From positions 1-57,576 of the IMG/VR virus record IMGVR_UViG_3300042564_001295: a DNA stretch of 57,576 bases; one strand, written 5' to 3'. A program made the translations under genes and the position numbers. Below are positions 32,761 to 43,699 of the stretch, piece after piece (the stretch's first letter is position 1; every line of letters begins with the position of its first letter). Origin of the DNA: a virus (lineage: Duplodnaviria > Caudoviricetes). The notes below the pieces were generated by a model that saw only the letters and a program-made list of their open reading frames with translations, was not told the DNA's origin and made no database searches.

Positions 32761-34173
32761 TTACAAAGCGTAACGATCACTCATTACAGTCTTAAGCATG
32801 ATGCCTTCTGGAGTGAACTGATCCAAATCAGCGGCTAGCAAGCTAGTCATTATACTTGGGCTAAATCCACTTACCAATGCGGCACCACTCTTGTCAGCCT
32901 TAACAGGCACGTTGTCTGAACTGTTTAGGTTCCAGAAAACAATCTGTGGCACAGTGTAACCTGCATCTGTGAACTTGCGTTCGATCATTTGCATTGATGT
33001 GTCGTCGTAACGAGCACATTGGTTAAACTGCATGTCTGACAAGATTAGCAACATGGCTGGCATGTCGCCTGCTGGTACTGAACCCTTAACTGCAACGCTC
33101 AAGATCTTGTCCATAGCGGCATGCAAATTAGTGCTCATTTCCCAATCACTCTTGCTCATTTGAGCAACCTTGTCAACAATGTTACCCTTTAGAGTAACAA
33201 GTTGTGGCTTGTCTGAGAAAGTCAAGAAAGTGTCCTTGAACACGCCCTTGTTCTTATCTGCTAGGTACAAGCCCAAGCTAATTGAAACATCCATGCAAGT
33301 CACATTAGTGTTCTTGCCTGCTGGGCAGGACATAGAACCGCTAACGTCTACAATTGGCATGATGCTTGCATCTCCAACGTAGTTTGGCAAAGCATTCCAC
33401 TGTGCCACAATGTGGTCAGTTTCTGTCTTATCCAACTTAGCACGGTAGCTACCGATGACTCCCTTTAACACGTCATGTGGGAAGATTGCGCTGGCGTTAA
33501 CCTTAACAGTCTTATCACCACTTACCAACTTGGCAACATACTCTGCAAATGCAGGAGTGTGACGGCCGAATGCCTTCTTGTAGTTGCGAGCAGCCACAGA
33601 AGGAACGTGACTGAAATTGATGTTATCCCAATCTCCTGCACACATTTGGGTTTCAACAACTGTGGTCATTGTTACCAATGACTTGCGGTACTGCTTCGGA
33701 GTCATTCCGAAGAATGCTCGTACTTCAGCCGCAATCTTACCCTTACGAGGAGTCCACTTTGCAGCCAATCCGTTTTGCGCACGAAGGGCATCGCCCAACA
33801 TGGTATAAGCGGCTGACTTCAGAACTGGGTTTGAGAAGACAAAGATGTCATCCCAACGACCTACTTCTGGAATCTTCTTTAGAAGAGCCAAAGCGGCGTC
33901 TGGGTCACGCTTTTCTAGATGTACTAGAATATCTCGGAACAATTGACGTTCACCAGCACCGCCACGGACATCACGTGCCCATTGTGCAATGCGTAGTGCT
34001 ACGTCAGAGTTTTCTACATAAGCGGCTGTGAAGTCGCCTGTGATGTTCTTACCACGGCTTGCGCCGATCTTGTAGAACAAGTCAACACAAGCCGAAGCTG
34101 TTGACTTACGTGCCTTCATACCATTTTCGGTACGGGCTTCTTGATTTGCTACTGCTGTTACAAATGCGTTCAT
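32761..34173 (-). CDS. DUF2828-family helical + vWA protein (Ro60/TROVE-like architecture)
   Basis: TENG..STASACVDLF, RDVRGGAGER, GRWDD, AAKWTPR; vWA MIDAS DVSGSM, ILSDMQF, FWNL. Confidence 0.85.
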   Translation of the reverse strand: MNAFVTAVANQEARTENGMKARKSTASACVDLFYKIGASRGKNITGDFTAAYVENSDVALRIAQWARDVRGGAGERQLFRDILVHLEKRDPDAALALLKKIPEVGRWDDIFVFSNPVLKSAAYTMLGDALRAQNGLAAKWTPRKGKIAAEVRAFFGMTPKQYRKSLVTMTTVVETQMCAGDWDNINFSHVPSVAARNYKKAFGRHTPAFAEYVAKLVSGDKTVKVNASAIFPHDVLKGVIGSYRAKLDKTETDHIVAQWNALPNYVGDASIMPIVDVSGSMSCPAGKNTNVTCMDVSISLGLYLADKNKGVFKDTFLTFSDKPQLVTLKGNIVDKVAQMSKSDWEMSTNLHAAMDKILSVAVKGSVPAGDMPAMLLILSDMQFNQCARYDDTSMQMIERKFTDAGYTVPQIVFWNLNSSDNVPVKADKSGAALVSGFSPSIMTSLLAADLDQFTPEGIMLKTVMSDRYAL

Positions 34174-34711: not shown

Positions 34712-34725
34712 TACATTTTGGTGAA

Positions 34726-34857
34726 ACAGGATACATTTTTAACGACTTTTGCTCTACCACTGAGCTACAACCGACTGCTTTTTAGGCTTGATCGGAAAGT
34801 GAGATTCGAACTCACGACCAAAAGTTTTTCCATGTTAAAAGTTGCTGTTAGTATCCT
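34726..34857 (-). ncRNA. ACAGCAA-box RNA 4: YrlA/Y-RNA-like circularly permuted tRNA mimic
   Basis: AGGATAC-TA-ACAGCAA...T arm, closed acceptor-like stem, D arm...GTATCCT-GT. Confidence 0.75.
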
Positions 34858-34917: not shown

Positions 34918-34995
34918 TGGAGCAACGGGTGAGATTTGAACTCACGGTCTTCGGGATTTGCAATCCCGTGCATTGGGCCGCTCTGCCACCGTTGC
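34918..34995 (-). tRNA. tRNA-Cys(GCA)
   Basis: Cloverleaf, loop TTGCAAA, U73, CCA. Confidence 0.92.
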
Positions 34996-35003
34996 ATGTT
35001 ATT

Positions 35004-35606
35004 TTAATAATTAAACAACATTTTTCTTGCATCCTCAAAATATGTATGAGGTTTTAATTCTGGAATAATACGTAGTGTTAGTACTACTCGTTCGTTATTT
35101 GAGCCAGTGTTATCCCAATCATGGAATATCTCTGTATTAAATAATATACACTCGCCTTGTTTTGCTATCATACTTTTTAATGGTGTATGATTTTCTTTTA
35201 CGAAACCATCGCATTCTCTGGATGTATTGGTGCGTAGGTTATCTATTGCATACTCTTTTAGATCTTCATCACTATACCAATTAGTAATACACTTATCATC
35301 TAATACTCTACTAACGTAGTTGATACTGAATTTGTTGTTCATTCCGTCTTTATGTGCTCTGTAATATAATCCAGGTTTGCTAATAAACAATGATATTCTA
35401 TTTTTTATCAATTTTATTCTATCTGCCATAGGAATCAAAGACAACATGTGTTGTGCTTGATGCTTTAGTAGAATGTAATTTGTAAATTTATTTAAATTTG
35501 CAATCTCAGGAGTACATTTGTTGCAATAGTCAATTATATCATCGATACCATCGTGGGTAAATCTAATATAATACGGACTACAATCTTCAATAATAGTGTA
35601 TTTCAT
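35004..35606 (-). CDS. 2OG-Fe(II) oxygenase-like protein
   Basis: AHKD...FHDWDN...RVVLTLR. Confidence 0.7.
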   Translation of the reverse strand: MKYTIIEDCSPYYIRFTHDGIDDIIDYCNKCTPEIANLNKFTNYILLKHQAQHMLSLIPMADRIKLIKNRISLFISKPGLYYRAHKDGMNNKFSINYVSRVLDDKCITNWYSDEDLKEYAIDNLRTNTSRECDGFVKENHTPLKSMIAKQGECILFNTEIFHDWDNTGSNNERVVLTLRIIPELKPHTYFEDARKMLFNY

Positions 35607-35615
35607 ACTATAAAA

Positions 35616-35690
35616 TGGTAGGACGTGACGGGATCGAACCGCCGACAGCCACCGTGTAAGGATGGAGTTCTACCTCTGAACTAACGTCCC
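35616..35690 (-). tRNA. tRNA-Val(TAC)
   Basis: Cloverleaf, loop CTTACAC, CCA. Confidence 0.92.
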
Positions 35691-35699
35691 ATATTCTCA

Positions 35700-35930
35700 T
35701 CAAACTCGTTTCAAATATTCTGCACCAACTTTGCCACTTTGGATTTCCAGCAGTGCAGTTAGATTAGAATACACATGTTCACGCTTGTCGCTTTCACGAT
35801 GTTGGCGTTTGATCTCACGTGCTCTTGCTGCCGCAATCAGCACGAGATTAAATCTGTTGCCGCCTGATAGGTCAACACATTGATTGGTGTCAATTTCAGT
35901 GCCGCGACTAAGTCCGATTAGTTTACTCAT
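35700..35930 (-). CDS. rpoZ: RNA polymerase omega subunit-like protein
   Basis: GNRFNLVLIAAARAREI...TALLEIQSGKV. Confidence 0.8.
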   Translation of the reverse strand: MSKLIGLSRGTEIDTNQCVDLSGGNRFNLVLIAAARAREIKRQHRESDKREHVYSNLTALLEIQSGKVGAEYLKRV

Positions 35931-35950
35931 ATATGCCTCATTAAAATGTT

Positions 35951-35979
35951 ATTATACTGTGTTTGGGTTGTGATGTCAA
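35951..35979 (-). promoter_or_regulatory. Consensus sigma70 promoter
   Basis: TTGACA-17nt-TATAAT. Confidence 0.85.
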
Positions 35980-35986
35980 TGCTTTT

Positions 35987-36061
35987 TGGCCTCGCCACCC
36001 GGAATCGAACCAGGATCAAAGGTTTAGGAAACCCTTATTCTATCCATTGAACTACAGCGAG
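35987..36061 (-). tRNA. tRNA-Arg(CCT)
   Basis: Cloverleaf, loop TTCCTAA, CCA. Confidence 0.9.
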
Positions 36062-37138
36062 TTAGCCAATAATTTTTAAAACCTCTGCAAAAGTATCCTT
36101 GTAGGATATGTTTCGTTTTTGATCCAGCATTTCCATATTTTCAACCAGTTTTTGAAACTTGCCCGGAACTTCAGGATGAGATTTTAACAAACGAGTTATG
36201 ATATGGTCGGTTCCAAACTTGTCTTCTATATGCTGTCTTAGCTTTAATGGAGTAGCATCTATGCCCCAAACACCAAAGCATGGACTAACTTGCAATCCAG
36301 AAAACTCATTGCTTCTACTGGGCCATGATCTTTTTGAATGCCAGGTTTCTAATTCTTTAAAATAAAAGATATTCATAGGATTAGCTGTAAACTGTATGTA
36401 AAAGCCCAGCTTGTCTTTTAATATATTATCATAGTGTAGCATGTTATGCTCTACTTTTTTCCAACTCAGCGGCCAACGTATGTAATCAAACTGCTGATTC
36501 ATTCCATCTATGCTGAATGCAAGATCAACCTGTTTAAATGTTGACCATAATTCTATCAATTCAGAATCTGGCAAAATACTACCGTTTGTGTTATAGAATA
36601 CTTCTACATTTGACGGAGTAGTTACACGTTTCAAAAAATCTACATTGTGTTCACTTAGTAATGGTTCTCCACCCACAAAGTCCAAACGGGTGAGTTTATC
36701 AAAGTTGGTAAAAGATATTAATTTTTGATATTGTAGTGAATAATTTTTTAATTTAGCATTGGGGTTATTTTGTTTCTGCCAAAGACTGCTAGAATGCGGC
36801 CCACAGATTGTACATGCCGCATTACATGTTAAATCGATCTGTACCGCAATGTGATACATATCACCGTCCACTGCATCTTCTGGTATAGAAGTTTTGGCAA
36901 CTTGTCTATGACTGACTCCATATTGGTTTTGCTCGCGTCCAAGGCATTCATGGCAGTTTTTTTCAGTATCGGCAAGTACATTTTTTGTAAACTGTCGTCT
37001 AACTGAAGTTAGTTGTATTTTATGTTCTATAGGCGTGCTACTTGGAAGAATCCAACAGCATGGTTGATACACAATGTTGCCATCTTTTTCAAGAAACCGA
37101 AAAGAGTTACTTAGTTTTCTACAAAATTCGTTGGCCAT
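36062..37138 (-). CDS. Radical SAM protein inserted in the tRNA array
   Basis: CNAACTIC, VGGEP, NTNGS; start moved to MANEF to avoid overlap with tRNA. Confidence 0.9.
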   Translation of the reverse strand: MANEFCRKLSNSFRFLEKDGNIVYQPCCWILPSSTPIEHKIQLTSVRRQFTKNVLADTEKNCHECLGREQNQYGVSHRQVAKTSIPEDAVDGDMYHIAVQIDLTCNAACTICGPHSSSLWQKQNNPNAKLKNYSLQYQKLISFTNFDKLTRLDFVGGEPLLSEHNVDFLKRVTTPSNVEVFYNTNGSILPDSELIELWSTFKQVDLAFSIDGMNQQFDYIRWPLSWKKVEHNMLHYDNILKDKLGFYIQFTANPMNIFYFKELETWHSKRSWPSRSNEFSGLQVSPCFGVWGIDATPLKLRQHIEDKFGTDHIITRLLKSHPEVPGKFQKLVENMEMLDQKRNISYKDTFAEVLKIIG

Positions 37139-37153
37139 TTTTGTTTTCCTATT

Positions 37154-37229
37154 TGGTTGCAGAGGATGGATTCGAACCACCGACCTCTAGGTTATGAGCC
37201 TAGCCAGATACCACTTCTAACACTCTGCG
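37154..37229 (-). tRNA. tRNA-fMet(CAT), initiator-like
   Basis: C1:A72 mismatch, loop CTCATAA; only two G-C pairs at bottom of anticodon stem. Confidence 0.85.
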
Positions 37230-37235
37230 TCAACT

Positions 37236-37309
37236 TGGTGGAGGTTAAGAGAATCGAACTCTTACGAAGACCTTGCAAAGGTCCCAGGCTACCATTACAT
37301 CAAACCCCC
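37236..37309 (-). tRNA. tRNA-Ala(TGC)
   Basis: G3:U70, loop TTTGCAA, CCA. Confidence 0.9.
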
Positions 37310-37314
37310 GAATA

Positions 37315-37391
37315 TGGTCGGAGTACAAGGATTCGAACCTTGGACCCCCTGGTCCCAAACCAGGTGCGCTACCAGACTGCGCTACACTCCG
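37315..37391 (-). tRNA. tRNA-Pro(TGG)
   Basis: Canonical cloverleaf, CCA. Confidence 0.95.
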
Positions 37392-37401
37392 AAAAATTGT
37401 G

Positions 37402-37475
37402 TGGAGCGGGATGGGAGAATCGAACTCCCGACATTAGATTGGAAATCTAAGGTAATGCCATTTTACGAATCCCGC
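37402..37475 (-). tRNA. tRNA-Gly(TCC)
   Basis: Loop TTTCCAA, U73, CCA. Confidence 0.92.
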
Positions 37476-37574
37476 ACACTTTATTAGAATACACTCATGC
37501 CTTTTTCGTCAGAGGATGGTGGCCAGTCCTTACTACCCAAACTATGTTCGAGCTGAATGTACTTTAATAAAGTG

Positions 37575-37776
37575 TCCGGCTACTCACACCACATGAGCCC
37601 CGGACTGAGCTGTTACTCTGTCCATAACATTTGTTCTTCTGGAAAGGTGCTAAACCTCACCCAATGCGTTCTAGTATCCCTTAACTCAGAGAACTAATGG
37701 TCATAGCATTGAATACCCGGCGCTCTCTATGGTGACTGCCCCACCCACTTTCTTAACGGAAAAAGTGTAATCCGGG
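37575..37776 (-). ncRNA. Candidate structured ncRNA (~200 nt)
   Basis: Closing helix CCGGATTAC/GTAGCCGG and several internal hairpins, no ORF. Confidence 0.5.
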
Positions 37777-37781
37777 TTTCT

Positions 37782-37855
37782 TGGTGCCCCAGTAAGGAAT
37801 CGAACCTTCTTCTAATGCTTACAAGGCAATTGTAATACCAATATACTACAAGGGC
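37782..37855 (-). tRNA. tRNA-Thr(TGT)
   Basis: Loop CTTGTAA, CCA. Confidence 0.88.
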
Positions 37856-37863
37856 AATATTTA

Positions 37864-38088
37864 TTATCCTGCTGTACTTGCTGTACCAGTGTCGTTGGTC
37901 ACATAACCAGTTGAGCCATTGCCACGTGGTGCATTTCTATCACGTGTAGGAGTTTTGATAACAACTTCACTGCATAGTTGTGCATCAATCATTGCACGTT
38001 TCCACTCATTACGCTTTACTGGATCTACAATAGATGCCAGCATGGTCTTTGTGGGCTTTCTTAATTTGAATGTCTTACCTGGTTTCAT
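37864..38088 (-). CDS. Small basic hypothetical protein
   Basis: 74 aa, AAAGG RBS. Confidence 0.6.
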   Translation of the reverse strand: MKPGKTFKLRKPTKTMLASIVDPVKRNEWKRAMIDAQLCSEVVIKTPTRDRNAPRGNGSTGYVTNDTGTASTAG

Positions 38089-38142
38089 ATTTTACCTTTG
38101 TTAAATTCTGGCGGAACGACTGAGTTCCTGATTTTCTTATTT

Positions 38143-38232
38143 TGGCGGAGAGACCGAGACTCGAACTCGGAAGCCGGATTACGCCGACCGATGGATTAGC
38201 AATCCACTCCAATACCATTATGGGACCTCTCC
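38143..38232 (-). tRNA. tRNA-Ser(GCT)
   Basis: Long variable arm, loop TTGCTAA, G73, CCA. Confidence 0.92.
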
Positions 38233-38592
38233 TAAATCTTTTACATCGTCTGGCTTAATGTGATGAACACCTTTACCGTTCATCTTATCTATCGGCATGT
38301 ACACAACTTTATCAATATTTGACAGATAGATAGCCCATCCATCTATAAGATTTCTGTCTATTGGTCTGCCTTTTCCATTTATAACAGTTGTTGCTGATAT
38401 CTCATAATAGTTTCTTTTTTCATATAAGGATCTGTACTTTACTTGCAATCTACGAACTTGTCCAGATTTGTCTAATGATATTAAATCAACTGGGCTATGA
38501 TCGTCAAACGGTGTAAAACAATGATATCCTTTACTATACAAATCTGCTATTACTTTAATTAAGCCTAAATTACCTTTTTCATTAACATTCAT
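38218..38592 (-). CDS. PD-(D/E)XK homing-endonuclease-like protein
   Basis: KGNLG..PVDLI..RLQVKY motif typical of intron/tRNA-associated PD-(D/E)XK nucleases; GGAG RBS. Confidence 0.8.
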   Translation of the reverse strand: MNVNEKGNLGLIKVIADLYSKGYHCFTPFDDHSPVDLISLDKSGQVRRLQVKYRSLYEKRNYYEISATTVINGKGRPIDRNLIDGWAIYLSNIDKVVYMPIDKMNGKGVHHIKPDDVKDLGEVP

Positions 38593-38647
38593 GACTAGCT
38601 CCTGCTTTGTTTATTTAGCAGATGAGCCATCTGTTATCCGTATAACT

Positions 38648-38734
38648 TGGTACGAGAGACGGGACTCGAACCCGTAAGCCCATTACAGGCGGCAGATTTT
38701 AAGTCTGCTGTGTATACCATTCCACCACTCTCGC
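38648..38734 (-). tRNA. tRNA-Leu(TAA)
   Basis: Long variable arm, loop CTTAAAA, CCA. Confidence 0.93.
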
Positions 38735-38754
38735 ATTATTTCTTGCTTGTGCTT

Positions 38755-38783
38755 ATTATACTGCAAGCGTCACAAAATGTCAA
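38755..38783 (-). promoter_or_regulatory. Consensus sigma70 promoter
   Basis: TTGACA-17nt-TATAAT. Confidence 0.85.
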
Positions 38784-38802
38784 CACTTATTTCGAATTAT
38801 TC

Positions 38803-38876
38803 TGGCGTACCCACTAGGACTCGAACCTAGACTGACGGTTTTGGAGACCGCGATGCTGCCATTACACTATGGATAC
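38803..38876 (-). tRNA. tRNA-Trp(CCA)
   Basis: Loop CTCCAAA, CCA. Confidence 0.92.
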
Positions 38877-39001
38877 ATAAAAAGGCACTTGCTGTGACGC
38901 TTGAATTCATGGTAGCCCTACTCTTCATGGCCGGTCCTTGTGCATAGTCGACATTGACAAGTTTTTCGGTGTTCCATTGTAGCTACTCAGCAAGTATTGA
39001 T

Positions 39002-39091
39002 TGGCGGAAGTAGTAGGATTCGAACCCACGGACCCTTTCGAGCCTTCAGTTTTCAAGACTGCTGCCTTAAGCCATGCTCAGCCATACTTCC
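39002..39091 (-). tRNA. tRNA-Ser(TGA)
   Basis: Long variable arm, loop CTTGAAA, G73. Confidence 0.92.
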
Positions 39092-39097
39092 ATATTT

Positions 39098-39173
39098 TGG
39101 CTCCCCGAGTACGGATCGAACGTACGACATCTTCGTTAACAGCGAAGCGCAACTACCTCTGTGCTATCGGGGA
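39098..39173 (-). tRNA. tRNA-Asn(GTT)
   Basis: Loop CTGTTAA, CCA. Confidence 0.92.
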
Positions 39174-39179
39174 ATTGAT

Positions 39180-39264
39180 TGGTGGAGATTACTGGGATCG
39201 AACCAGTCGTGCCCGAAGGCGGCGGATTTACAGTCCACTGCATCACCATTGATGCTTCATCTCC
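39180..39264 (-). tRNA. tRNA-Tyr(GTA)
   Basis: Long variable arm, loop CTGTAAA. Confidence 0.92.
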
Positions 39265-39270
39265 AATTAT

Positions 39271-39354
39271 TGGTGCCCAGGGAGAGACTCGAACTCTCAA
39301 TCCTTTCGGCAGTGGCTTCTAAGACCACCGTGTATACCATTCCACCACCTGGGC
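39271..39354 (-). tRNA. tRNA-Leu(TAG)
   Basis: Long variable arm, loop CTTAGAA. Confidence 0.93.
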
Positions 39355-39445
39355 AATACTTTACATATAAAAACACACTCAAGTCCGCGGCACGGAAGGC
39401 ACTATACCCGCAATGGTCTATGACCAGTCCTAATGTGTTTTTATA

Positions 39446-39520
39446 TGGAGACGCTACGGGGAATCGAACCCCGCTTTACGGGATGAAAACCCGTTATCCT
39501 GACCGATAGATGATAGCGTC
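39446..39520 (-). tRNA. tRNA-Glu(TTC)
   Basis: Loop TTTTCAT, CCA. Confidence 0.88.
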
Positions 39521-39575
39521 AAATTGTCTTTTAAATTTTTAAGGAGCATTGCTAAACTTGTTAGCGTATGTGACT

Positions 39576-39604
39576 ATTATATAGCCTATGCTACGCTGTG
39601 TCAA
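39576..39604 (-). promoter_or_regulatory. Consensus sigma70 promoter
   Basis: TTGACA-17nt-TATAAT. Confidence 0.85.
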
Positions 39605-39634
39605 TGCTTTTTTGAACTAATTGCAAAATATATT

Positions 39635-39709
39635 TGGTGGGCCCTGCTGGGATCGAACCAGCACTGTCGGTTTCGAAGACCGAAGTGATATCCATTTCAC
39701 TAAGGACCC
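39635..39709 (-). tRNA. tRNA-Arg(TCG)
   Basis: Loop CTTCGAA, CCA. Confidence 0.9.
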
Positions 39710-39710
39710 T

Positions 39711-39787
39711 TGGTGCGGCTGAAGGGATTCGAACCCCTGACCCACGAGGTAGAAGCTCGTTGCTCTAATCCACTGAGCTACAGCCGC
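39711..39787 (-). tRNA. tRNA-Arg(TCT)
   Basis: Loop CTTCTAC, CCA. Confidence 0.93.
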
Positions 39788-39796
39788 AATTAAAAT

Positions 39797-39870
39797 TGGT
39801 GCTCTTAGAAAGAATCGAACTTTCATTACTTCCATACCAAGGAGGCGTTCTACCATTTAACTATAAGAGC
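39797..39870 (-). tRNA. tRNA-Thr(GGT)
   Basis: Loop TTGGTAT, CCA. Confidence 0.88.
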
Positions 39871-39871
39871 A

Positions 39872-39949
39872 TGGTACCCCGGGTGAGATTCGAACTCACA
39901 CGATTCTCCTTTTGAGAGAGACGCCTCATACCAATTGGGCTACCGGGGC
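39872..39949 (-). tRNA. tRNA-Leu(CAA) with short variable loop
   Basis: Loop CTCAAAA, 5-nt variable region. Confidence 0.85.
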
Positions 39950-40004
39950 ATTGAATTAACACAAGTTGTTCACCGTACAACTTGTAAAACGGGGGTCTGT
40001 TGAA

Positions 40005-40221
40005 TTTGTAAGTAGTAGAGCCACTTTAATCTCTACCATTCACCCGATTGCACTGGTCCGGACGGGAAGTGGTGCATCACTTGGGATACTTGTCCAGCGT
40101 ATAGACCTTTCTACCTCGGACACTACGTGCCCGGGTGGGGATCGAACCCATTTGCCTTCTACTATAAAGTACCTTCGAAGAATACAGTATAGCGTGACTT
40201 TCTCTTGCTGACACTTACAAA
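40005..40221 (-). ncRNA. Structured ncRNA with T-loop and RNase P-like motifs
   Basis: Closing helix TTTGTAAGT/ACTTACAAA; GAGAAAGTCAC near 5' end; internal TGGGTTCGATCCCCA. Confidence 0.5.
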
Positions 40222-40224
40222 ACT

Positions 40225-40300
40225 TGGTGCACCCTGTTGGAATCGAACCAACTTCAACGGCTCTTCAGACCGCCGCTATGACCACATCAGCTAAAGGTGC
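40225..40300 (-). tRNA. tRNA-Phe(GAA)
   Basis: Loop CTGAAGA, CCA. Confidence 0.9.
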
Positions 40301-40307
40301 ATATACT

Positions 40308-40381
40308 TGGTAGTTCCTGAAAGAATCGAACTTTCGTCAATGCAATGTCAATGCACCATTCTCCCATTGAACTAAGGAACT
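40308..40381 (-). tRNA. tRNA-Val(GAC)
   Basis: Loop TTGACAT, CCA. Confidence 0.88.
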
Positions 40382-40393
40382 AAAATCTACTTA

Positions 40394-40466
40394 GGGGTGA
40401 CCACTGGGAATTGAACCCAGATAAGCGGAATCACAATCCACGACTTTACCATTAAGTTATGGCCAC
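40394..40466 (-). tRNA. tRNA-His(GTG), no encoded CCA or G-1
   Basis: Loop TTGTGAT, C73, ends CCT. Confidence 0.88.
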
Positions 40467-40484
40467 ACCTAAGTAGATTAAAAT

Positions 40485-40559
40485 TGGTACCGCCAAAAGG
40501 AATCAAACCTCTATTCCCACGTTCGTAGCGTAGTGTATTATTCATTATACTATGGCGAT
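40485..40559 (-). tRNA. tRNA-Arg(ACG), somewhat degenerate
   Basis: Loop CTACGAA; D-loop GA and T-loop TTTGATT deviate. Confidence 0.75.
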
Positions 40560-40564
40560 ATATT

Positions 40565-40638
40565 TGGCAGGGGCACTAGGGATCGAACCTAGACTGACAG
40601 AGTCAAAGTCTGTTGTGCTACCATTACACAATGCCCCA
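40565..40638 (-). tRNA. tRNA-Gln(TTG)
   Basis: Loop CTTTGAC, CCA. Confidence 0.92.
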
Positions 40639-40644
40639 ACAATT

Positions 40645-40718
40645 TGGAGCGGGATAGGAGAATCGAACTCCTGACTAAACCTTGGCAAGGTTTCGTTTGA
40701 CCATTAAACTAATCCCGC
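40645..40718 (-). tRNA. tRNA-Gly(GCC)
   Basis: Loop TTGCCAA, CCA. Confidence 0.92.
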
Positions 40719-40727
40719 ATAAAGATA

Positions 40728-40968
40728 TTAGTTAAAGACGCTGAGAGTTTTGGTTGACGTATTCGGTCCAGCCACCCAGTACTTACAGTACCGCTCTACT
40801 AGTCTAGCGTAACATGGAGCACCATTTGTCAACTAGGACCGCCCATGCTGTAAGCACTGATCCATCTTCGTCAACTGGAGTAAGGTTTATAACTATCAAC
40901 AACCGAAGTTTTCCACTCTTCCATCGTTTCTCTTGCGAGACTCCTTGGCACCTTGCGTCTTTAACTAA
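40728..40968 (-). ncRNA. Candidate structured ncRNA (~240 nt)
   Basis: Perfect 14-bp closing helix TTAGTTAAAGACGC/GCGTCTTTAACTAA plus nested helices. Confidence 0.55.
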
Positions 40969-40990
40969 CACATTTAGTTATCTTTAAATT

Positions 40991-41065
40991 TGGTGGTAAC
41001 GGTGAGATTCGAACTCACACCGGGCAGCGTATGAAGCTGTTGCACAACCATTATGCTACGTTACC
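40991..41065 (-). tRNA. tRNA-Met(CAT) elongator (or Ile2)
   Basis: Loop TTCATAC, paired 1:72, CCA. Confidence 0.88.
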
Positions 41066-41145
41066 ATAGAAAAACACACTCGGGGATGTGCTGAAAGTAC
41101 CCCTTGTTGATCCTAAATCTTTATGTTTTAGAATGTGTTTGTCTA

Positions 41146-41221
41146 TGGTAGGACCGCCCGGACTCGAACCGGGAATTGGCAGATTAAAAGTCTGCTGTGA
41201 TAACCATTTCACCACGATCCC
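41146..41221 (-). tRNA. tRNA-Lys(TTT)
   Basis: Loop CTTTTAA, CCA. Confidence 0.93.
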
Positions 41222-41226
41222 ATGTA

Positions 41227-41303
41227 TGGTCCACAGCGTCAGATTCGAACTGACACCTCATCGGTTAAGAGCCGAGTACGCTACCGTTAAACGCCAGCTG
41301 TGG
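41227..41303 (-). tRNA. tRNA-Lys(CTT)
   Basis: Loop CTCTTAA, CCA. Confidence 0.85.
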
Positions 41304-41422
41304 ATAGTTACGTATTGAATTTTCTTTTACGTGCCTATCCAAGACCATACATGGGATCTCAGAAGACACTAAAGTTTAGCAGAGCTTCGCTTCATTGTGT
41401 TACCTCTTTTGTTTATGTGTTA

Positions 41423-41451
41423 ATTATACACTTAGTCACGACTGTTGTCAA
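41423..41451 (-). promoter_or_regulatory. Consensus sigma70 promoter
   Basis: TTGACA-17nt-TATAAT. Confidence 0.85.
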
Positions 41452-41563
41452 TCGCTTTCTTTTGTGCTTGGCGTTCTGATTTCCAGAACACTCGTTTCCA
41501 ATCCTTAAGGTGTTTCCACCACTGAGGACTCTTTGTTAAGTTACCTTGTTTGACATTTGCCAT
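41432..41563 (-). CDS. Small basic Trp-rich protein (43 aa, not in ORF track)
   Basis: Own translation MANVKQGNLTKSPQWWKHLKDWKRVFWKSERQAQKKAIDNSRD; AAGGA RBS. Confidence 0.6.
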   Translation of the reverse strand: MANVKQGNLTKSPQWWKHLKDWKRVFWKSERQAQKKAIDNSRD

Positions 41564-41580
41564 ACTAGTTCCTTTATAAA

Positions 41581-41637
41581 ACAGGATGCTTATTTTTCAA
41601 TTAAAAGTTGAATTTTTGAATTTGCTGTTCGCATCCT
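41581..41637 (-). ncRNA. ACAGCAA-box RNA 5 displaying a Lys(UUU) anticodon stem-loop
   Basis: AGGATGC-GA-ACAGCAA..TTCAA-CTTTTAA-TTGAA..GCATCCT-GT. Confidence 0.7.
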
Positions 41638-41641
41638 AAAC

Positions 41642-41733
41642 TGGTACCAGCGGAGAGGATCGAACTCTCTCAAGAACGCTAATCTGGCGCTAAAAGGTGT
41701 ATAAGACCTCTCTGACTTCCAAGTCTCGCTGGC
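41642..41733 (-). tRNA. Atypical tRNA-Ile(TAT)-like
   Basis: Acceptor, T arm and CCA intact; minimal D arm, long variable arm; loop CTTATAC. Confidence 0.65.
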
Positions 41734-41741
41734 ATAAAAAT

Positions 41742-41817
41742 TGGTCTCTCTGCTAGGATTCGAACCTAGACCACACGGCCCCAAACCGTGTACGCAACCT
41801 GATAACGCTTCAAAGAG
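41742..41817 (-). tRNA. tRNA-Pro(TGG), second copy
   Basis: Loop TTTGGGG, CCA. Confidence 0.82.
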
Positions 41818-41824
41818 ATAAAAT

Positions 41825-41899
41825 TGGTGGAGGCCGAGGGAATCGAACCCTTCTAGACAAGATGCTTGCAAGGCAACTCCGTAGCCCACTACTGCCCCC
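41825..41899 (-). tRNA. Atypical tRNA-Ala(TGC) with truncated D arm
   Basis: G3:U70, loop CTTGCAA, D arm GTAG-TGGG-CTAC. Confidence 0.7.
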
Positions 41900-41906
41900 A
41901 ATTGTT

Positions 41907-41981
41907 TGGTACTGTCGACGGGTATCGATCCCGCTTCTCCACCTTGAAAGGGTAGCGTCCTAGCCACTAGACGACGACAGT
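41907..41981 (-). tRNA. tRNA-Glu(TTC), second copy
   Basis: Loop CTTTCAA; T-loop ATCGATA. Confidence 0.85.
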
Positions 41982-41988
41982 GTAAAAA

Positions 41989-42049
41989 ACAGGATAGCAT
42001 TTTTGGCTTTTTTTCAAGAAAAGGTTTTTAAATTTGCTGTTGCTATCCT
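41989..42049 (-). ncRNA. ACAGCAA-box RNA 6 displaying a Ser(UGA) anticodon stem-loop
   Basis: AGGATAGC-A-ACAGCAA..CTTTT-CTTGAAA-AAAAG..GCTATCCT-GT. Confidence 0.7.
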
Positions 42050-42054
42050 AAAAT

Positions 42055-42128
42055 TGGTCCTCTCGTATGGAATCGGACCATCATCGTTCGATTATCAGTC
42101 GAATGCTCTACCATTGAGCTACAAGAGG
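42055..42128 (-). tRNA. tRNA-Ile(GAT)
   Basis: Loop CTGATAA; T-loop TCCGATT. Confidence 0.85.
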
Positions 42129-42133
42129 AAATT

Positions 42134-42208
42134 TGGCGGCTCCAAGGAGAATCGAACTCCTATTAATGGCGTGACAAGCCACCGTACTAACCATTATACT
42201 ATGAAGCC
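42134..42208 (-). tRNA. tRNA-Asp(GTC)
   Basis: Loop TTGTCAC, G73, CCA. Confidence 0.92.
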
Positions 42209-42214
42209 AAATTT

Positions 42215-42302
42215 TGGTGGATCTTGATGGAATCGAACCACTTGCCGCCACCCCACTTGTTAATGGCTACCGGGTTACAGCCGGCAATGGGGGACAAGAT
42301 CC
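42215..42302 (-). tRNA. D-armless tRNA-Tyr(GTA)-like RNA
   Basis: GGATCTTG/CAAGATCC-A-CCA, GCCGG-CTGTAAC-CCGGT, T-loop TTCGATT, no D arm. Confidence 0.6.
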
Positions 42303-42583
42303 ATAACACACTCACGACCGGTAATTACCAATCCATAAGCAAACTATGTCTGCTTATAAAGAATGTGTATATTAAAACATACTGATAACGCCACTATGTG
42401 TACTGTACTGTGAGCACAGCCGTCCCTTTCAGTATGCTTTAATATGACAGATTTTTCGCTCTAGAAAAAGAGTTTCATCCTTGCCACCGCCCGTTCGCTC
42501 CGTGTTTTAAGTGCAGAGCCAGGACCTCGTTTCCTGTATATTCACACTTTGCTTCAACGACTGCCTTGGCAATCTCAGCGTCT

Positions 42584-42620
42584 AAAAACAAAAAACCCCA
42601 GGGTTTTTAATCCTAGGGTC
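42584..42620 (-). terminator. Intrinsic terminator (attenuator) ahead of the tRNA array
   Basis: GACCCTAGG/CCTGGGGTT hairpin followed by TTTTGTTTTT. Confidence 0.8.
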
Positions 42621-42647
42621 CTTGAAGTTTGTTATGTAAGTTTTAAG

Positions 42648-42794
42648 TTACACTACAGTCCTCCGGACCCTTGAAATCTCTGGTGTGCGATCATATGATA
42701 AACTTCCGCAATTAATCATAGACCAACCAGAGGCTATAAAGCCTGCCAATTTGGGCATTGTATTAAATTGTTGATGTTTAACGTTCGATTGCAT
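42648..42794 (-). CDS. Putative leader peptide (48 aa, all 20 amino acids; not in ORF track)
   Basis: Own translation MQSNVKHQQFNTMPKLAGFIASGWSMINCGSLSYDRTPEISRVRRTVV; lies between promoter and terminator. Confidence 0.7.
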   Translation of the reverse strand: MQSNVKHQQFNTMPKLAGFIASGWSMINCGSLSYDRTPEISRVRRTVV

Positions 42795-42852
42795 TTAGTT
42801 TCTCGTTTATCCTTTGTTGCCAACAAGCACCATTGCCTGCTAACTAGTCCTA

Positions 42853-42881
42853 ATTATAGTGCCTTTCAGCACACTTGTCAA
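42853..42881 (-). promoter_or_regulatory. Consensus sigma70 promoter of leader/tRNA array
   Basis: TTGACA-17nt-TATAAT. Confidence 0.9.
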
Positions 42882-42951
42882 CAACTTTTGAAATCTTTCT
42901 TTGTTGTATTTTCACAACACTGTCTGACGCCTTGCTTGCTAACTTGTTTCT

Positions 42952-43068
42952 ATTGTACAGTTAATTAGTCTCTGTGTCAACATGTTTTTGTCTTTTTGGA
43001 CAAATTGTTTTTCATAGACACCTTCTTAACAGTCTTTCTATTGTATGTTTATTTAGTCTCTTTGTCAA
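42952..43068 (-). promoter_or_regulatory. Two tandem related sigma70 promoters
   Basis: TTGACA-CAGAGACTAATTAACTG-TACAAT and TTGACA-AAGAGACTAAATAAACA-TACAAT. Confidence 0.75.
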
Positions 43069-43121
43069 GACCTATATGATAATGTGGCTTTTTTACAACA
43101 TCTAAAAAGCCACATTATGTT

Positions 43122-43250
43122 TTACAAAGTTTCGTAGTCAGCTTTGAAGCCGCCACACTCTGGGCAAGGAAAATCTTCGGGTAAGTCTTCCCATACGCCT
43201 TCTAGTTCTTCATCGTGGACATGGCCACAAATTACACATACATGATCCAT
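43122..43250 (-). CDS. Rubredoxin (42 aa, not in ORF track)
   Basis: Own translation MDHVCVICGHVHDEELEGVWEDLPEDFPCPECGGFKADYETL; two CxxC. Confidence 0.9.
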   Translation of the reverse strand: MDHVCVICGHVHDEELEGVWEDLPEDFPCPECGGFKADYETL

Positions 43251-43699
43251 TACAGTGTCTCCAATACTTGTTGATATGCTGCCGCATGACGCTGTTCAAC
43301 TTTTGCCAACGCCGCAAAACGCTTTGAAGCCTTTTCCAACACAGCTTTGAACTGTTGGGCATGTTCTTGTGACTCACGACCTTGCTCGTTGAATTCTTTG
43401 ACAGCTTCAATGTTGTGTTCAGCTTTGGCACGATATTCAAACTCTGGATACATTGTGGTGAACTCATATGTTTCGCCTTCGATGGCCAGCTCTAAACACT
43501 TACGAGTGTCGGGTTTGCCAATCAGCAAGTCCAAATGTCCCCATGCATGTTGCAGTTCTTGATCTGCTGTATGTTCAAAGTGTTGAGCAACTTCTTCAAA
43601 TCCTTCTGCACGGGCAATTCGGGCAAAGTAGCGGTACTTGATGTGTGCTTGTGACTCGCCGGCGAGTGCGGCCTCAAGATTTTTAATTGTGATAGACAT
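43250..43699 (-). CDS. Rubrerythrin (ferritin-like diiron)
   Basis: NLEAALAGESQA..ELQH..GETYE..MYPEF..ESQEH. Confidence 0.92.
   Translation of the reverse strand: MSITIKNLEAALAGESQAHIKYRYFARIARAEGFEEVAQHFEHTADQELQHAWGHLDLLIGKPDTRKCLELAIEGETYEFTTMYPEFEYRAKAEHNIEAVKEFNEQGRESQEHAQQFKAVLEKASKRFAALAKVEQRHAAAYQQVLETL

Follow-up and report, generated by a model that had tools for sequence, protein, structure and literature searches.

A candidate leader-peptide attenuator, with a reading frame that covers all twenty amino acids, at the head of phage tRNA arrays

The large tRNA sets of phages pose a long-standing question, to which codon compensation and escape from tRNA-cleaving defences have been the main answers, and we know of essentially nothing on how such sets are regulated. 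This second question is raised by a 57.6-kb fragment of viral DNA (Duplodnaviria; Caudoviricetes; IMG/VR record IMGVR_UViG_3300042564_001295, positions 1 to 57,576; CheckV completeness estimate 16), the whole of which is referred to here as the window. On its minus strand a 48-codon open reading frame (ORF) containing every amino acid is placed between a perfect promoter and an intrinsic terminator, behind which follows an array of 34 tRNA genes (34918-42208 (-), by ARAGORN; one further tRNA, at 39183-39264, was found by Rfam only). The original prediction, made from this sequence alone, took the ORF to be the leader of an attenuator that gates the array and senses general tRNA depletion. Comparison with relatives suggests that the locus is quite probably a ribosome-mediated transcription attenuator heading a jumbo-phage tRNA array, with a leader ORF under selection to include all amino acids and almost all wobble codon classes, and the leader interpretation is supported in every comparative test that was run.

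A blastn search with 42200-43100 against 50,697 records of cultured phages gave no match and, to judge from these searches, the family is so far known from metagenome contigs only. Two DNA patterns retrieved 23 and 105 stretches from IMG/VR, nearly all of them the same element, and the removal of eight of 110 loci left 81 distinct leader peptides of 43-53 amino acids (aa). The loci dropped comprised two with the pattern inside long unrelated ORFs (L122, L182), three with the ORF cut at a contig end (L145, L167, L171), two with the 3′ part cut in the same way (L128, L160) and a deletion variant without antiterminator and terminator (L166, whose peptide is that of L160, cut there by the contig end); L152, with an interrupted T tract, failed the terminator pattern. 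A scan of genome contigs yielded 55 stretches, of which one is a true member by model R1, on a 6.2-kb contig binned as a Polynucleobacter metagenome-assembled genome (MAG), and the rest are chance matches. Relatives with a poorly conserved leader, which the prediction had proposed to look for, were thus found: pairwise identity among the 81 peptides has a minimum of 0.18 and a median of 0.44, and single linkage at 60% identity groups the peptides into 11 clusters. The leader peptide has no match in Pfam or PHROGs. In 79 of the 81 members, a promoter site of the form TTGAC-N17-19-TAnAAT precedes the start codon by no more than 140 nt.

Reading frame and coverage of the leader

The leader frame is, on the comparative evidence, conserved as a reading frame. 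Frame 0 contains no stop in any of the 81 leaders, against averages of 2.75 and 4.14 stops per ORF in frames +1 and +2, while the ATG is kept in 81 distinct homologues and the stop codon is TAA in 80 and TAG in one. All seven indels within the ORF are of 3 or 6 nt in an alignment of 21 sequences, in which we read indels of other lengths in the 5′ untranslated region (UTR) and the apical loop. The start codon of the window leader lies 52 nt past the predicted transcription start, a short ORF close to its promoter. Fourteen variants from several lineages (L105, L111, L115, L119, L141, L142, L149, L150, L153, L158, L161, L165, L183 and L185) have a -10 box that ends 6-10 nt before the ATG, with the 5′ hairpin and A-rich UTR absent, and the transcript of these leaderless forms should, as predicted from the promoter, begin at or beside the start codon. 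The ATG of the other forms follows a 5′ hairpin, whose arms, as we read the alignments, vary among relatives yet remain complementary, and an A-rich stretch. The leader ORF would appear to be translated.

Residue coverage is maintained across the family, with all 20 amino acids in 73 of the 81 leader peptides and 19 in the other eight. Composition is even: C, H, W and Y each occur exactly once in 79-88% of the peptides, Ala averages 2.4 residues per peptide, and no residue is enriched in runs, so that the enrichment in a single cognate amino acid found in classical attenuators is absent here. A full set in one 48-codon ORF is only mildly unusual. Its chance, which the prediction had asked to be computed, is 5.6% for independent, identically distributed residues of phage proteome composition and 9.9% with M, W and DRTPEI taken as given, and a full set occurs in 3.7% of 11,350 real 48-residue windows of phage genes, a range of 3.7-10%. 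Within-column shuffling of the family, a control that ignores relatedness, left 23.8 +/- 3.5 of the 81 peptides with a full set (at most 35 in any of 2000 shuffles) against 73 observed. Cys is spread over 14 columns of the alignment, Tyr over 13 and His over 9, and single Cys, Tyr, His and Lys residues shift position instead of being lost. Since column shuffling ignores relatedness, 40 edge-disjoint sister pairs were also used; these contain 42 full displacements of a residue type, and the type was kept elsewhere in the peptide in 38, against 18.8 expected (0 of 200,000 simulations reach 38). A member with the full set is present in 10 of the 11 clusters. The set is complete upstream of the antiterminator arm in 62 of 81 leaders, and the invariant block, which provides the D, R, T, P, E and I codons of the leader, adds the last kinds, notably Glu. 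Coverage of all 20 kinds occurs in none of the 81 leaders when their DNA is read in frame +1 or +2, and in none of 57 forms of an adjacent small gene (described below), which have 14-19 kinds.

Codon coverage was counted in 32 wobble classes, namely NNY and NNR boxes, with ATG, ATA and TGG each forming a class of its own. The window leader is unusual at this level: its 30 classes compare with 22.6 +/- 2.05 (maximum 28) in the windows of phage genes, none of the 11,350 reaching 30, and with 25.0 for uniform random codons, and the probability of at least 30 classes is 2.5e-4 under independent draws from phage codon usage and 3.7e-3 under uniform codons. The codon content listed for it was confirmed, with four Val and three Gly codons, Arg CGC, CGG and AGG, Ile ATA, and single codons for C, D, E, H, W and Y. 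The diversity expected of relatives is also retained, as leaders of the family cover 26-32 classes with a median of 30, and at least 30 in 48 of 81. Synonymous redrawing of the peptides gives 27.0 classes against 29.5 observed, and both codon boxes are present for Ser in 81, Arg in 69 and Leu in 74 of 81 leaders, against 75.9, 57.0 and 52.7 expected. This coverage is frame-specific (24.1 and 24.4 classes in frames +1 and +2), and the adjacent small gene reaches at most 26 classes. Coverage is thus under selection, and the property selected is, as far as the alignments can tell, complete residue coverage together with near-complete coverage of codon classes.

Antiterminator and terminator

Both ends of the predicted leader transcript were found as claimed (Table 1). 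The promoter is one of five perfect sites on the minus strand between 34 and 44 kb of the window, a region in which 49 promoter-like sites were detected against 25.1 +/- 4.0 in shuffles, and a transcript ending at the terminator would be about 260 nt long. The consensus scan of this region did not have the terminator at 42620-42584 among its matches, as we read it because the scan range for loops is 3-8 nt and this loop has 9. The last codons of the leader had been proposed to form an antiterminator exclusive with this terminator, and the structure is as described: GGACCCT (42615-42621) is common to the terminator stem and the antiterminator 3′ arm, the 5′ arm AGGGTCC.GAGG corresponds to leader codons 43-46, and the stop codon lies inside the hairpin. 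The unconstrained minimum free energy (MFE) fold of 42846-42584 (-78.6 kcal/mol; z = -5.0; none of 200 shuffles as good) adopts exactly that hairpin and not the terminator, with an upper stem GTGTAA/TTACAT as its extension.

The two exclusive structures also covary in relatives, as the prediction had proposed to check. In an unfitted MAFFT alignment of 80 distinct 3′ parts, 79.8% of cells of the antiterminator are paired and two-sided changes are found in 11 of its 20 pairs (85 cells), values that none of 500 shuffles reaches, and partners slid along the alignment pair in at most 47% of cells. An alignment fitted with a covariance model, a procedure that leans toward the structure, gives 87.8% paired cells and compensatory changes in 17 of 20 pairs (144 cells), again unmatched in 500 shuffles. 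The arms occur as AGGGTCC:GGACCCT, GGGGTCC:GGACCCC, GGGTTCC:GGAACCC and GGGTTCTT:AAGAACCC. For the terminator, 99.6% of cells are paired in the 80 sequences, and two of nine pairs change on both sides. Mean free energies are -24.4 kcal/mol for the antiterminator and -14.2 kcal/mol for the terminator; the former is the more stable in 80 of 80 sequences and is picked by the joint MFE fold in 70 of them. The stop codon lies inside the antiterminator hairpin in the 80 sequences, at 24-39 nt from the EI codons upstream and 22-41 nt from the shared segment downstream; judged by the typical footprint, a ribosome that has reached the stop would be expected to cover the antiterminator 5′ arm and not the terminator. 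No conserved anti-antiterminator appears in the RNAalifold consensus of the whole leader, and between 42200 and 42900 no Rfam 15 family reaches its gathering score (best, the trpB motif at 20.1 bits against 59). The large hairpin within the ORF in the window MFE fold was considered as a pause hairpin; it is absent from the RNAalifold consensus and no claim is made for it.

The following mechanism can be proposed. The strong sigma-70-type promoter would start the ~260-nt leader transcript, and prompt translation to the last seven codons and the stop would place the ribosome on the antiterminator 5′ arm. With this arm masked, GGACCCT would be free, the terminator hairpin would form and the polymerase would stop at the T tract. 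With a ribosome that is slow or stalled at any codon before these, or with none loaded, the more stable antiterminator would form first, and transcription would continue into a small protein gene (lost in the window), the structured RNA termed element A and the first tRNA cluster. As every amino acid and about 30 of the 32 codon classes are represented by one or a few codons, readthrough would then rise when almost any tRNA is short or cleaved, or when translation fails in general. We infer that the position of the ribosome decides termination.

Products behind the terminator and neighbouring features

The leader has a constant position before tRNA arrays: among the 79 loci with at least 1500 nt downstream, a same-strand array begins 265-1042 nt past the leader stop in 78 (the exception is L185), and 0-4 tRNAs per locus lie upstream. 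The array that was said to be gated does therefore follow the leader, but most relatives have a ~52-aa protein and a ~185-nt structured RNA, not tRNAs, as the first products past the terminator. The protein, which is basic, helical-looking and rich in Lys, Arg and Glu, is encoded 10-28 nt past the terminator behind a good Shine-Dalgarno sequence (58 distinct forms; e.g. L107 and L121); its only match is a weak one to a PHROG family without assigned function (E = 0.0013). Its gene is truncated in the window, where a remnant is found at about 42475-42591 (-).

Element A (~185 nt) was detected by nhmmer in 63 distinct sequences directly past the terminator or the small gene. RNAalifold on 36 sequences finds compensatory changes in 22 of its 34 pairs, its conserved motifs include GGAAACGAGGTCC, GCACTTAAAACA and AAACGGGCGG, and no Rfam family matches it. 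It is followed in relatives by tRNA-Tyr(gta), the head of many arrays; a tRNA-like remnant occupies the corresponding position in the window, and nhmmer matches of this region (42218-42303) land on the first tRNAs of relatives. No promoter-like site of at least 10/12 is present on the minus strand of the window between 42584 and 42208.

Table 1. Features of the leader locus and of the region behind the terminator (window coordinates)
Feature	Position	Strand	Description
Leader promoter, TTGACA-17-TATAAT	42853-42881	-	12/12 consensus match; predicted +1 near 42846
5′-proximal hairpin of leader transcript	42819-42844	-	in MFE fold
Leader ORF, 48 codons + TAA	42648-42794	-	20 amino acids, 36 distinct codons, 30/32 wobble classes
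Invariant block GATCGCACACCAGAGATT (DRTPEI codons)	42675-42692	-	directly 5′ of antiterminator arm
Antiterminator hairpin AGGGTCC.GAGG...CTTC..GGACCCT	42615-42671	-	MFE fold and covariation
Intrinsic terminator, stem GACCCTAGG / CCTGGGGTT, then T tract TTTTTTGTTTTT	42584-42620	-	9-bp G+C-rich stem, 9-nt loop
Element A, conserved structured non-coding RNA	42365-42547	-	first intact product past terminator in the window
tRNA-like element, not called by ARAGORN	42218-42303	-	tRNA-Sec model 25.2 bits, below gathering score of 47
First tRNA cluster (Asp, Ile, Glu, Ala, Pro, Ile-tat)	41642-42208	-	before next perfect promoter, 41451-41423

The leader promoter is the last of three tandem near-consensus promoters directed toward the leader on the minus strand within 230 nt (43068-43040, 11/12; 42980-42952, 11/12; 42881-42853, 12/12). 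An inverted repeat, TGTTGTG-N4-TACAACA, at 42902-42919 (-), about 20 nt upstream of the leader -35 box, is kept in 13 of 21 aligned sequences and may represent an operator or mark where an upstream transcript ends. Directly upstream of these promoters lies a rubrerythrin and rubredoxin gene pair, 43122-43699 (-). Retrieval of relatives by this neighbourhood, through rubrerythrin, was tried and given up: among 80 loci the leader was detected by blastn in two (L002, L074), and three others matched element A alone.

RNA libraries X1-X4 gave contigs only, from which transcript starts, ends and levels cannot be read. One 442-nt contig of library X2 spans 42523-42958 across the terminator. Two short contigs of library X3 have ends close to the predicted +1, at 42846 and 42849, but these ends come from a single study, and the libraries may contain DNA. 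None of 22 sequencing runs (16 of them on record as RNA) contains half of the sampled words.

The source is a large freshwater phage with a jumbo-phage tRNA array. At gathering scores, Rfam detects tRNAs and a transfer-messenger RNA (tmRNA) only in the whole window. This two-piece tmRNA, 53781-54259 (-), passes the beta_tmRNA and tmRNA_permuted gathering scores and has the ARAGORN tag ANANTFEYVQVPFTVSAMNDREFALAA. The beta-type tmRNA and the one leader on a contig binned with a Polynucleobacter MAG may be taken as a weak hint of a betaproteobacterial host. At the far end of the tRNA array, a Ro60/TROVE-like protein (DUF2828 + DUF7788; 32761-34173 (-)) shares 42-48% identity with 'RNA-binding' proteins encoded by many large phages, and beside its gene lies a weak match to YrlA (Y RNA-like) at 34724-34833 (-), with 29 bits against a gathering score of 69. 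The window also has at least four ORFs of the radical-SAM type, at 14884-15909, 20547-21863 and 36062-37180 (-) and at 23180-24592 (+), one of them within the tRNA array.

Relation to known attenuators and the signal sensed

The classical trp, his, leu and phe attenuators combine a short promoter-proximal ORF, mutually exclusive hairpins and a switch set by ribosome position, in which a stall upstream leads to readthrough. Their leaders carry runs of one cognate codon and control the synthesis of that amino acid, and an untranslated leader terminates via 1:2 pairing. The phage leader resembles them in having a promoter-proximal ORF, a terminator between ORF and genes, an alternative antiterminator and an ORF end that overlaps the switch, and differs in that no codon is enriched and in that the untranslated default is predicted to be readthrough. 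T-box riboswitches bind one specific uncharged tRNA directly and need no ribosome. They are alike in that a decision between terminator and antiterminator reports the state of the tRNA pool; the phage leader has no T-box features in Rfam searches and would read all tRNAs indirectly, via translation.

The closest known analogue, and one studied by experiment, is the upstream ORF (uORF) of mycobacterial whiB7, which leads to a rho-independent terminator when translated efficiently and to an antiterminator on stalling (PMC10274678). The amino acid content of that uORF is described as deciding which starvations are sensed, one Trp codon as enough for this, and removal of a single Trp codon as reducing the sensing of Trp starvation (PMC10274678); a single-codon design is plausible for the phage leader for this reason. 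The likeness is that of a long, diverse uORF with a terminator/antiterminator choice set by translation; the whiB7 uORF also responds to general translation stress (PMC10274678), as is predicted for the phage leader. There is no sequence relation, and the whiB7 uORF is 25-40% Ala and varies in the residues it lacks (PMC10274678), whereas the phage leader conserves coverage itself. The regulated product there is a transcription factor; the attenuator proposed here is phage-encoded, and its products would be a small protein and a tRNA array besides a structured RNA. Membership in the whiB7 type, an Ala-rich uORF before a WhiB7 gene in Actinobacteria, is contradicted by the low Ala content of the leader peptides and by the RNA genes and the ~52-aa protein gene downstream; the weak host hints, too, are of a betaproteobacterium. 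Literature searches, to which supplementary tables did not belong, yielded no description of a leader-peptide attenuator before a phage tRNA array. To judge from the comparative evidence, this is a real, widespread and previously undescribed leader-peptide attenuator, a known kind of regulation in a new place.

Several observations weigh against this reading or limit its reach. Both retrieval patterns are in the 3′ half of the leader and fix part of its sequence, leaving more divergent members unsampled. The eight incomplete leaders each lack a residue type (Cys in six, Val in one, Lys in one), the CTY class is missing in 68 of 81, and leader codons are no better matched to phage anticodons than uniform synonymous choice (e.g. 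37/48 against 36.8 expected; 9 of 13 loci); with one copy of each rare codon, the response should also be weaker than that of trp or his codon runs. Shine-Dalgarno sequences are weak in the forms that are not leaderless (AAAGG ~15-20 nt and GAGAAA ~7-12 nt upstream of the ATG). Synonymous sites of the DRTPEI block are fixed as well, for which no explanation was found; in 21 distinct sequences from the pattern that does not require it, the block varies only at CGC/CGT, ACA/TTA and one 3-nt insertion, and it appears in RNAalifold as a small hairpin whose pairs do not covary. Strong conservation leaves few variable pairs in the terminator and in the lower antiterminator stem, and RNAalifold on the whole leader returns the terminator and the small invariant hairpin and no antiterminator. 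Absence of the ORF or the antiterminator from homologous loci had been named as evidence that would speak against an attenuator, and homologous loci keep both with the exception of L166, where antiterminator and terminator are deleted and the leader frame continues for 52 codons toward the small gene.

The claim that readthrough switches the tRNAs on has to be narrowed. A promoter-like site of at least 10/12 precedes the first tRNA in 21 of 78 distinct terminator-to-tRNA intervals, often by ~38 nt, and further perfect promoters are found within the window array at 41451, 39604, 38783 and 35979; much of the array is therefore transcribable without readthrough and does not depend on it alone. 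The small gene and element A are surely under the predicted attenuator control. Because of the promoters in 21 of 78 intervals, control of the first tRNAs is predicted in about three quarters of relatives, and elsewhere the attenuator would add to other promoters.

What the attenuator would sense can be stated more tentatively. Phage tRNA arrays have been described as a counter-defence against tRNA-targeting nucleases (PMC10264068), an account of which the portion used here concerns the anticodon loops of tRNAs, not the control of transcription, and offers host tRNA loss as a natural signal. It is possible, although we would not call it probable, that the leader is a pan-tRNA sensor of decoding capacity within an inducible counter-defence against anticodon nucleases or starvation, which induces the structured RNA and replacement tRNAs and then shuts itself off. 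Loss of a tRNA species would cause a stall on the single matching leader codon, the antiterminator would form, and element A and replacement tRNAs would be made; once decoding is restored the leader would be translated in full and transcription would cease, giving a self-correcting supply circuit for the whole code.

The same attenuator might instead respond to overall translation capacity or to the timing of infection (ribosome availability, host shut-off, the coupling of transcription and translation), with even codon coverage providing an unbiased average and not the detection of single tRNAs. We consider this doubtful, though it is the best supported of the rivals. An untranslated leader would also read through, the antiterminator being the default and the more stable structure in 80 of 80; a rare codon that is present once should be sensed only weakly; leader codons are unmatched to phage anticodons (9 of 13 loci); and the whiB7 uORF responds to general translation stress besides starvation (PMC10274678). 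An average would need no full residue set. A residue type that is displaced nevertheless reappears elsewhere in the peptide in 38 of 42 cases (18.8 expected), and coverage of wobble classes is above that of even a uniform-codon model.

It is less probable still that the ORF is simply an early gene for a small protein, followed by a terminator of its own, the hairpin at its stop codon serving mRNA stability or the termination of translation and the adjacency of tRNAs being a matter of gene order. The conserved reading frame and the C-terminal DRTPEI...R/V/G conserved as peptide would suit such a gene, as would a ~260-nt terminated transcript, the main product if translation is efficient. Beyond DRTPEI and one Trp, however, the peptide drifts to 18% identity, keeping its composition and not its sequence, with Cys in 14 alignment columns and Tyr in 13, and it has no match in Pfam or PHROGs; 7 nt of the hairpin are also part of the terminator stem, with which it covaries, and the DRTPEI block is invariant at synonymous sites as well. 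That the locus is a structured non-coding RNA with an incidental open frame is very improbable, for although the leader folds far better than shuffles (z = -5.0) and its neighbour element A is a true structured RNA, frame 0 alone is stop-free in all 81, indels within it are multiples of three, residue and codon coverage is specific to it, and 14 variants have their ATG at the predicted transcript start.

If the locus is the attenuator proposed here, a leader and switch before the array would imply that the phage measures decoding capacity and adjusts the transcription of its tRNAs accordingly. The leader would be a natural example of selection for complete codon coverage within about 48 codons, and could offer synthetic biology a compact general sensor of translation and tRNA status. 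It further draws attention to a structured RNA not described before and to a small protein, both of which would share this control, and it would make the question of how phage tRNA sets are regulated directly testable with simple reporters.

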